Shown here: positions 15,001 to 16,525 of the stretch, one piece after another
How positions within the stretch are numbered: the stretch's first letter is position 1
Layout of the letters: each line of letters starts with the position of its first letter
Source: a virus
Taxonomy: Duplodnaviria > Heunggongvirae > Uroviricota > Caudoviricetes
IMG/VR virus record: IMGVR_UViG_2778261085_000008
Coordinates: 1-16,525 of that record
DNA: 16,525 nucleotides
Reading direction: 5' to 3' (one strand)
Program-made: the position numbers

Positions 15001-16525
15001 GGCCTTTTCATCGTTTTATTCCTTTACTTTGGCTCACTGGTAATACTGTTGAGCCTTTTTTATAAGTGAATAAATTTTGCAGGGGCTGGTTTTCAATAAT
15101 TAATATTTCACATGTGGCCCTTTAGCTCAGTGGTTAGAGCGAGCGACTCATAATCGCCAGGTCGCTGGTTCAAATCCAGCAAGGGCCACCATTCCGCCAC
15201 TAGCTCATCAGGATAGAGCATCAACCTTCTAAGTTGATTGTGCGAGGTTCGAGTCCTCGGTGGCGGACCATTCCATGCAAGTTTAGCTGGCAGCGTTATT
15301 AGCCCGGAGTCATTGGGTTATTCGTTAAGTTCTGTTAGTTCACCATATGGCATCATAGCTTTTCTATAAACGATACAATTAACGTTAAAAGTTACAAAAA
15401 CTACTGCTGATGTAAGTCTTGCAATCTGTTATTTCCTGAGTGTTTCCTGTTATTTGTCGCAACAACGTAATTAGCGTATTCCCAAATGGATCATATTCAT
15501 ATTGGTTTTTACGCAATGTCCTGTGAGAAATCAGAAGTCTGGATGAAATAACATAAATTGTATGCGCCTGATACATATTTATACATATGTTTAAATATGA
15601 AAACTAATTAGTTTTTGATGTCATATAAATTATCGGTAATATTAATCCCGATCCGAAAGGCAGCAAGTTTCTGTTCACAGGGTGTTATCCGCTGTCTAGC
15701 GGGTCATTGCTGGCATCCGTTTAATCATAATGAAGGGCTGTTATCAGTATCAGTGTCATTATTGTGGTTACGGAGGCCTGCTCTATATGCAGGTATCGTA
15801 TAGTGATTATTACATCAGCCTTAGGTTGGTAATGCCGGTTCGATTCCTGTTCTCCGCAACTTCATTGTTTTATTTCTGACGGCGTTTGCAGCACTGGCGG
15901 TTTTCCGCGTTGAATAATAGTTCAGGTTTTTATTGTTCTTCATTCTGCAATAGCGGATACAGTGCTGTTTTTTTCTCATGAAGTTGCGTTATTGGAAAAA
16001 GTTGTTACCAGAATGAGTCGTTGCCTGTTTTGGTGCCTGTGATTTGCCAGAATTGCGTTGCAGGCTGACGACTCATTCTGGCAGCGGCCATACTTACAAT
16101 AATCGCTGTTCCACTCTTACATGATGAATGCGTTAGCCCGTCTCCGGACGGGTATTTTTTTATTCATAGTCTTAGGCTGCTGTTGAGGGGCTTTTCATTT
16201 CGCTCCAAGCCGGCGCACATCAAAAATCACAGAGCCCTTCAGGGGGAGCTTACGGGATTGTCGGTGTGACTTTCTCTGTGGGCTGCTCATCCCGGGGCGA
16301 GGCTCACCCACTAAAAGGACAAGTCACGATGTTAGGTATTTTCAAAAAGAAAACCCGCAAGGCCATTACTGAAGTGAAGAAGATGTAGAACCGCGACGCA
16401 GTGGAAGCGACCATCTGGGGCGCATACTCCATTGCATATGCTGACGGTACCTGCGACGCGAAAGAAATCGCGGTACTGGAGAAAACCATTGCAGCACTTC
16501 CTGCTTTTGCGCCGTTCTCCGGTGA

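Follow-up and report, generated by a model that had tools for sequence, protein, structure and literature searches.

Does the gene-free interval ahead of the lysis genes of a lambdoid prophage encode a small regulatory RNA, or is it a piece of ordinary late-operon architecture? The stretch of DNA analysed here (the window) comprises 16,525 nucleotides (nt) of a virus of the Caudoviricetes, positions 1 to 16,525 of IMG/VR record IMGVR_UViG_2778261085_000008, and is a lambdoid (lambda-like) prophage. A gene-free stretch of ~1.06 kb separates its transfer RNA (tRNA) genes from a TerB homologue. A sequence-only reading had placed a candidate trans-acting small RNA (sRNA) in this stretch, at 16007-16162, on the grounds of a perfect 14-bp inverted repeat stem-loop followed by a strong intrinsic terminator. 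Hfq-binding sRNAs (STnc100, PasD, AgvB/AsxR) are known in the late or 'moron' region of prophages (PMC4104026; PMC8550237; bioRxiv 10.64898/2026.05.13.724894).

We find that positions 16001-16161 very probably hold a functional RNA element of some kind. They encode a structured non-coding RNA module of ~160 nt on the late-operon strand. The reading we favour, whose chances we put at about even, is that its product is a terminated, stable regulatory RNA. The interpretation as an sRNA is plausible, partly supported and unproven.

Structure of the module

The module consists of a long hairpin, a single-stranded segment and a terminator, arranged as follows:

16001-16088, plus strand: hairpin B, a ~25-bp stem with one bulge and an apical region of 37-46 nt
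16089-16135, plus strand: single-stranded linker of 47 nt between hairpin B and the terminator
16114-16135, plus strand: conserved 3' half of the linker, CUCUUACAUGAUGAAUGCGUUA
16136-16161, plus strand: intrinsic terminator with a 7-bp GC-rich stem, a 4-nt loop, A and U7

The inverted repeat within hairpin B has two arms of 14 nt (16008-16021 and 16068-16081) that are 100% complementary and 46 nt apart, as the sequence-only reading had described. A perfect 14-mer inverted repeat within 90 nt arose in 2 of 200 dinucleotide-preserving shuffles of the window. Folding of the RNA from 16000 to 16165 (166 nt) gave a minimum free energy of -64.1 kcal/mol (z = -5.4), and none of 200 shuffles folded as well. 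The terminator was likewise borne out. Its stem-loop, GCCCGTC-TCCG-GACGGGT, occupies 16136-16153 and is followed by an A and by T7 at 16155-16161, and no terminator-like site in 14000-16525 ranks above 16136-16161. Hfq-type sRNAs end in a Rho-independent terminator whose U tail is long (at least 6-7), and the module ends in a 7-bp stem with U7. The gap between the end of the perfect repeat (16081) and the terminator stem measures 54 nt, against an earlier estimate of about 55 nt.

The interval 15271-16328 had been described as having no credible open reading frame (ORF), and this stood: six ORFs of 40-63 amino acids overlap it, none of which matches a PHROGs family, and RefSeq annotates no coding sequence in the homologous interval of relatives. 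The interval is not featureless, however, as it holds a decayed tRNA and a further structured element (element A, below). A 21-codon ORF starting from ATGATG (16122), MMNALARLRTGIFLFIVLGCC, was rejected, as it has no Shine-Dalgarno sequence and its frame is broken in relatives by differences in U-run length and by indels.

Selection on the plus-strand RNA

Nineteen distinct variants of the module were collected from Escherichia lambdoid prophages, and 17 of them were aligned. RNAalifold recovers both the 25-bp hairpin and the terminator from the aligned variants. Standard pairs fill 96.7% of the cells of the pairing table, and six pairs show compensatory double changes; for the stem of hairpin B, the number of pairs with compensatory changes is five. 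The covariation score was reached by none of 500 shuffles, and sliding the pairing partners lowered pairing to 30-44%. All seven terminator pairs are kept in every one of the 17 variants, and the U-run measures 7-8 nt in 15 of them, with one C in the run of the other two.

The same table contains ~53 G-U cells and ~5 A-C cells, an asymmetry to be expected only of a folded plus-strand RNA. The hairpin of the window folds to -44.9 kcal/mol on the plus strand and -37.9 kcal/mol on the minus strand, and all 16 hairpins of a wider superfamily (below) likewise favour the plus strand (-43.6 vs -18.0 kcal/mol in one case). Compensatory changes together with the many G-U pairs thus point to selection on the plus-strand RNA, and the variation among relatives indicates that it is at the RNA level that the structure is selected.

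Distribution and conservation

By BLAST, the unit of ~160-165 nt is present in 25 of 5426 complete Escherichia coli (E. coli) genomes, at 72-98% identity. The carriers are mostly pig enterotoxigenic E. coli (ETEC) and cattle isolates, along with one baboon and one human isolate. The unit is present also in IMG/VR and metagenome contigs, and no sequenced phage in INPHARED carries it. A pattern scan of 185,579 species-representative genomes returned chance matches only, none from an Enterobacteriaceae representative. The module family is rare and strain-specific.

The conserved stretch runs from the hairpin base to the U-run, and the sequences on the 5' and 3' sides are unrelated between lineages. 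At all chromosomal prophage loci examined, the unit lies in late-gene orientation after phage tRNAs and is followed by a holin or by TerB, DUF3927 and a holin. The count for an identical holin cassette is 370 genomes, against 25 for the unit, so the unit is optional and moron-like; in this one sense, the earlier description of the region as prophage cargo was apt. A pattern scan of viral contigs for the 3' module without the hairpin gave chance matches only besides known members, and hairpin and 3' module therefore travel together. In Escherichia lambdoid prophages, the module forms a discrete cassette that is optional.

Far from being absent or unconserved in related prophages, the element was recovered in its 19 variants and is better conserved than its flanks. 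Identity to the closest relative, ETEC1703, is 100% in the linker, 96.6% in the hairpin and 96.3% in the terminator, compared with 78-87% in the flanking intergenic DNA, 87% in the TerB gene and 82% in the decayed tRNA. Between lineages, mean pairwise identity of the linker is 0.54 in its 5' half and 0.70 in its 3' half. The 3' half is predicted to be mostly unpaired or weakly paired, and its conservation makes it a candidate seed or protein-binding segment.

Upstream companions of the module

Three further features, all on the plus strand, stand upstream of hairpin B:

14894-15062, plus strand: second unit of like architecture, just upstream of the first tRNA (15116)
15789-15858, plus strand: decayed tRNA (28.7 bits, against an Rfam threshold of 29)
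15888-15974, plus strand: element A, a branched structure closed by GCAGCACUG/CAGUGCUG and followed by U7

The decayed tRNA aligns with a phage tRNA-Gly that is intact in relatives, where it stands ahead of element A and the hairpin; the decayed copy is less conserved (82% identical to ETEC1703) than the non-coding element downstream of it. Element A folds with z = -4.3; its closing stem is invariant, and three of its pairs show compensatory changes. In all lineages examined it accompanies the hairpin, with the phage tRNA-Gly on its other side, and it may be a terminator or an sRNA in its own right.

The second unit has a hairpin at 14894-14978 (repeat arms 14895-14912 and 14960-14977), a linker of ~53 nt and a terminator at 15031-15055 (GGCUCA...UGAGCC) with a U-run. 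It scores 29.5 bits against the covariance model of the element family (expectation value, E, ~2e-6 to 4e-4), and its fold has z = -4.7. No relatives of 14894-15062 were found in the viral contigs searched.

A separate observation concerns the DNA between element and holin in the prophage of E. coli C5 (L002, 4215-4320), where a CA-rich stretch, ACACACCACAUCAGAAAACACCAGAUAACACCACACAAAAGG, is followed by two terminator-like hairpins before the holin start. By eye, the CA-rich stretch resembles a mimic of a GcvB target, and it could belong to another sRNA.

A wider family of hairpins

Prophages with the same holin and without the element carry a diverged hairpin at the equivalent place, with the base motif CAGAAUG...CAUUCUG and a compensated interior. 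This sister hairpin starts ~115-125 nt after a phage tRNA-Gly whatever the downstream gene, which may be a holin, TerB, a subtilase toxin, EssD or, on a plasmid, a transporter gene. Its covariation covers 33 pairs, six of them with double changes, and includes many G-U pairs. The sister family comprises 427 of the 5426 E. coli genomes, and behind its hairpin come an STnc100-like domain, a tail and a terminator. This STnc100-like RNA is found at 1939-2135 of a prophage of E. coli W/KO11FL (L066) and in relatives. The domain, with core CGGGAGGCACCCGACACC, matches the full-length Rfam model RF02076 at 24.4 bits (threshold 47, E 0.0015), and the Rfam threshold appears to miss this diverged STnc100-like subfamily. 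In a third type (ATCC 8739, ESC818), the hairpin is followed by a linker of ~70 nt and a terminator.

The 47-nt linker of the window and the tail of the STnc100-like RNA of the STEC313 type can be aligned end to end (p ~0.001 by shuffling, before correction for ~40 comparisons), and two related tails gave the alignment again. To the leader of STnc100 in Stx2 phage, the homology of the hairpin is marginal (p 0.003-0.03), and there is none for the sister hairpin. From these alignments, the element looks like one of several alternative bodies behind a common hairpin, and it may be an STnc100-like RNA that lost its core.

Transcription and proposed mode of action

On the plus strand, no sigma-70 promoter-like site in 14000-16525 passes a standard scan, and nothing is conserved between the U-run of element A and the hairpin. 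One weak match lies within the module itself:

16065-16094, plus strand: promoter-like match with -35 CTGACG in the 3' arm of the hairpin, an 18-nt spacer and -10 CATACT

The start predicted from this match is near 16101, at the beginning of the linker. Its -35 has the consensus (C/T)TGACG and its -10 is weak. It falls below the standard threshold in the window; in a relaxed scan, 5 of 8 lineages have a match at the equivalent position, with scores of 8-10 of 12, and one is also found in locus L009. An internal promoter is, on these matches, a speculative suggestion. A sigma-54 match noted by eye in the loop was rejected for its wrong spacing. Without an internal promoter, the RNA must arise from read-through of element A, from transcription of the tRNA cluster, or by processing of a Q-modified late transcript.

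Under the reading that we favour, polymerase arriving from upstream (the tRNA cluster, element A read-through or an unrecognised promoter) would terminate at 16161. Termination would free a stable RNA whose terminator hairpin and U-tail would make an Hfq-type 3' end. This RNA might span all 160 nt, or it might be a 3' species of ~60-75 nt that arises by processing or by internal initiation. By analogy to the positionally equivalent STnc100 and PasD RNAs, the conserved single-stranded stretch CUCUUACAUGAUGAAUGCG could pair with host or phage RNAs, and the linker segment CAUGAUGAAUG is a candidate contact segment for action in trans. The long hairpin, likely a duplex of RNase III size, would protect or define the 5' end. 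The terminator would join a chain of terminators that silences the holin until Q-modified polymerase reads through.

Several results weigh against this picture. Neither standard nor relaxed scans detected a conserved sigma-70 promoter upstream of the hairpin, and the sequence directly 5' of it has an identity of only 0.36 between lineages. Element A, which has a U-run of its own, lies only ~27 nt upstream of the hairpin, and transcription into the hairpin therefore needs read-through; the element as a whole stands behind another U-run structure, within a series of terminators ahead of the lysis genes. Searches of the window for complements of the linker, including RNAduplex of the linker against the whole window, gave none above background, nor does the linker pair with the start regions of TerB and the holin any better than background. 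An Infernal scan against Rfam, the check suggested alongside the sequence-only reading, returned no family at threshold for the element. The core domain of STnc100, including CCGGGAGGCACCCGGCACC, is absent from 16001-16161, and the tail homology described above holds in one lineage only. For the proposal of a trans-acting sRNA, the conserved plus-strand structure, the U7 terminator and the sRNA-bearing region thus count in favour, while the lack of an upstream promoter, of an Rfam family and of a target among the sequences searched counts against.

Alternative explanations

A serious rival, though a less likely one that we hold at a tentative level, is that the element acts purely in cis as part of a leader between tRNA and lysis genes. 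Its terminator, along with element A and further terminators, would then insulate the holin and endolysin from transcription that is not Q-modified in the lysogen, there would be no targets in trans, and the long duplex would be an RNase III/RNase E processing or stability site separating tRNA precursors from late mRNA. The tandem U-run structures on the same strand before the lysis genes (element A and hairpin B, with two more before the holin at C5-type loci) agree with such a role, as do the lack of a promoter of its own and the similar hairpin-plus-terminator unit that also precedes the tRNAs. The hairpin is moreover tightly tied to the 3' side of the phage tRNA-Gly whatever lies downstream (holin, TerB, subtilase toxin, plasmid transporter gene). 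Stems of 25-30 bp are of RNase III substrate size, and the hairpin fits this range. A terminator or processing site does not, however, require a linker that is conserved like the structures around it. The element is also missing from ~95% of prophages with the same holin cassette and is therefore not needed for lysis control. Finally, the same slot holds an STnc100-like RNA in the sister family, and STnc100 is a known expressed sRNA class (PMC12370729).

A broader proposal, which we consider doubtful, takes the ~88-nt hairpin as a constant 5' platform for a modular 'sRNA slot' located in the tRNA-cluster trailers of lambdoid prophages, behind which phages swap regulatory RNA cassettes. Counted across its types, the hairpin occurs in more than 450 E. 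coli genomes, and the interchangeable bodies would be the STnc100-like domain, the ~70-nt linker and the 47-nt linker, each with its own terminator. The RNAs would be co-expressed with the tRNAs and freed by cleavage at the hairpin, and the window, with two units flanking its tRNAs, would represent a duplication of the slot.

It is improbable that the functional product is an sRNA of ~60 nt (roughly 16101-16161) from the internal promoter, an anti-sRNA of the AgvB/AsxR kind that sponges core sRNAs, with the hairpin mattering only for transcripts arriving from upstream. The promoter-like matches that would drive it occur at the equivalent position in 5 of 8 lineages, but they are weak (8/12 in the window, with spacers of 15-19 nt) and absent from three lineages. 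The linker is most variable in its 5' half and conserved in its 3' half, which fits the anti-sRNA pattern (PMC4104026), and the best, weak, Rfam match over 16086-16160 is AgvB (RF02702). That match reaches 16-19 bits (16.3 in the window, 18.6 in the C5 prophage) against a threshold of 56, and nearly all of the score comes from the terminator. The other sub-threshold Rfam matches were set aside as well, anti-hemB and RprA being, like AgvB, terminator-driven and the remainder generic miRNA-precursor hits. AsxR, in the anti-sRNA group of AgvB, is antisense to the late (stx2) transcript (Tree et al., PMC4104026), whereas the element is sense, on the late-operon strand, in all loci. A short transcript would also leave the RNA-level conservation of the hairpin unexplained.

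A DNA-level element (an operator, a recombination site, or a mobile-element remnant such as an IS200/IS605 end or a miniature inverted-repeat transposable element) is highly improbable: a copy on plasmid pPE041_2 does follow an IS200/IS605 tnpA at a distance of 147 bp, the arms keep a nearly invariant sequence, CAGAATGAGTCG, and the loop has a third CCAGAAT copy, but the pPE041_2 copy is the most decayed one and prophage homology continues on both sides of the insertion sequence, which was therefore inserted into a prophage fragment, the unit elsewhere keeps a fixed orientation and slot and does not form dispersed copies, arms 46 bp apart are unlike an operator, and the excess of G-U over A-C and the plus/minus fold asymmetry point to RNA.

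Genomic context

The genes and tRNAs of the window that place the module are the following:

4719-5393, minus strand: S24-type repressor
next to the repressor in gene order: CII-like gene
after the CII-like gene: Ash/Rha and KilA-N genes, then DUF968
12794-13177: Q antiterminator
13300-14118: CPBP-protease moron
15116-15270, plus strand: two intact phage tRNAs, with a CAU anticodon and Arg-UCU
from 16329 (16329-16525 in the window): TerB homologue

The tRNA with the CAU anticodon is assigned to Met by ARAGORN and annotated as tRNA-Ile in relatives. Behind TerB, relatives carry DUF3927, two holins and an endolysin. The gene order in the window and in relatives thus places the element between the phage tRNAs and the lysis cassette, on the late-operon strand. 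In the TerB-family gene of the window, codon 20 (16386-16388) is an in-frame TAG in place of the Glu of relatives, and the gene is likely a pseudogene or a nonsense allele.

Between the CPBP moron and the tRNAs lies ~1 kb of AT-rich non-coding DNA without ORFs (14119-15115), which has no blastn match in any of the 5426 complete E. coli genomes; relatives have a small ORF and a DNA methyltransferase gene at the equivalent place. A third long inverted repeat, at 14736-14821, falls in this non-coding stretch before the tRNAs, with 24-nt arms that are 92% complementary, a 38-nt loop and a fold z of -4.8; no clear terminator stands behind it. Elsewhere in the window, a perfect 15-nt inverted repeat, ACAAAACAGAGAAGA / TCTTCTCTGTTTTGT, with arms 59 nt apart, lies at 3518-3606 inside a minus-strand ORF (3107-3700).

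Two other stretches, 6636-6824 and 7258-7446, form a tandem pair in which an isrK-like RNA is followed by a C4 antisense RNA (Rfam, well above threshold), within or beside Ash/Rha-type ORFs. The tandem isrK-like/C4 copies suggest a duplicated immunity module of the P1/P7 c4-ant type.

Comparison with known small RNAs

If expressed, the module would be a new family among the prophage-encoded sRNAs of pathogenic and livestock-associated E. coli. It would link phage tRNA clusters, a conserved long hairpin and the STnc100/PasD class, a link that we did not find in the literature searched. The hairpin superfamily would also offer a handle on how such sRNAs are made: whether tRNA-operon or late transcripts are processed by RNase III, and whether the RNAs act in the lysogen or after induction. 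If the module is only a terminator or processing site, it would be ordinary late-operon architecture. The hairpin superfamily that joins phage tRNA trailers to STnc100-like RNAs is the more interesting by-product.

Small RNAs of the 3'ETS-leuZ type derive from the trailers of tRNA operons. Like them, the element occupies the 3' flank of tRNA genes, shares the strand of these genes and has a terminator at its end, and the hairpin superfamily is tied to the flank of the phage tRNA-Gly, starting ~115-125 nt after it. The synteny between hairpin and phage tRNA-Gly, or its relic, is constant. Unlike in the 3'ETS-leuZ type, element A with its U-run stands between tRNA and hairpin, and the tRNA-Gly of the window is decayed while the element is conserved.

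The tR'/6S RNA of lambda and StxS are short terminated late-leader RNAs whose terminator is overridden by Q, as that of the element would be. These RNAs start at PR' directly after Q, whereas the element lies ~2.8 kb downstream of Q, beyond the moron gene and the tRNAs.

PasA and PasC (EcOnc51/52) are also intergenic, just upstream of lambdoid holin-lysozyme genes, and TerB is often near them (bioRxiv 10.64898/2026.05.13.724894). They lie on the strand opposite to the flanking genes (PMC8550237, table S6). Unlike the element, they are only ~80 nt long, and they have no sequence similarity to it. As relatives, PasA and PasC of E2348/69 were rejected together with PasD1 and PasD2, none of which has BLAST similarity to the element (PP2/PP4 regions).

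AgvB and AsxR (RF02702, RF02703; PMC4104026) share with the element a place in the moron region downstream of Q, a short 3' module with a GCCCG-type terminator, and a variable 5' part with a conserved 3' part. They differ in being primary transcripts of 51-60 nt without the long hairpin, and the element has none of their CA-rich, GcvB-mimicking sequence.

The closest counterparts are STnc100 and PasD. PasD1 and PasD2 (EcOnc13), each 172 nt long, have been validated as Hfq-dependent RNAs, and Zhu et al. related them to STnc100 (bioRxiv 10.64898/2026.05.13.724894; PMC8550237). By score and by core, the element is not a member of STnc100 itself. RF02076 (threshold 47 bits) gave no match at E up to 10 over 15200-16525 or 15950-16200, and the diagnostic core (GGUGAAUCC...CCGGGAGGCACCCGGCACC), which is present in the E. 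coli W/KO11FL prophage and in Stx2 phage PA52, is absent. PasD has a recognisable promoter, which the element lacks, and the covariance model of the element family does not find PasD.

The likeness is one of position and build. STnc100, PasD and the element all lie on the sense strand of the lambdoid late region, between Q, tRNAs or moron on one side and the holin on the other, and the slot of PasD1/PasD2 (DUF3927, PasD, holin) is equivalent to that of the element. All are ~160-200 nt long, with a structured 5' domain, a single-stranded tail and a Rho-independent terminator. In the sister family, a like hairpin stands directly 5' of an STnc100-like RNA, with whose tail the linker of the element aligns. 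The element, which belongs to no Rfam family, is a new and rare family of a known kind of prophage element, and it is best read as a new prophage sRNA-like family, kin to STnc100 and PasD in position and architecture.

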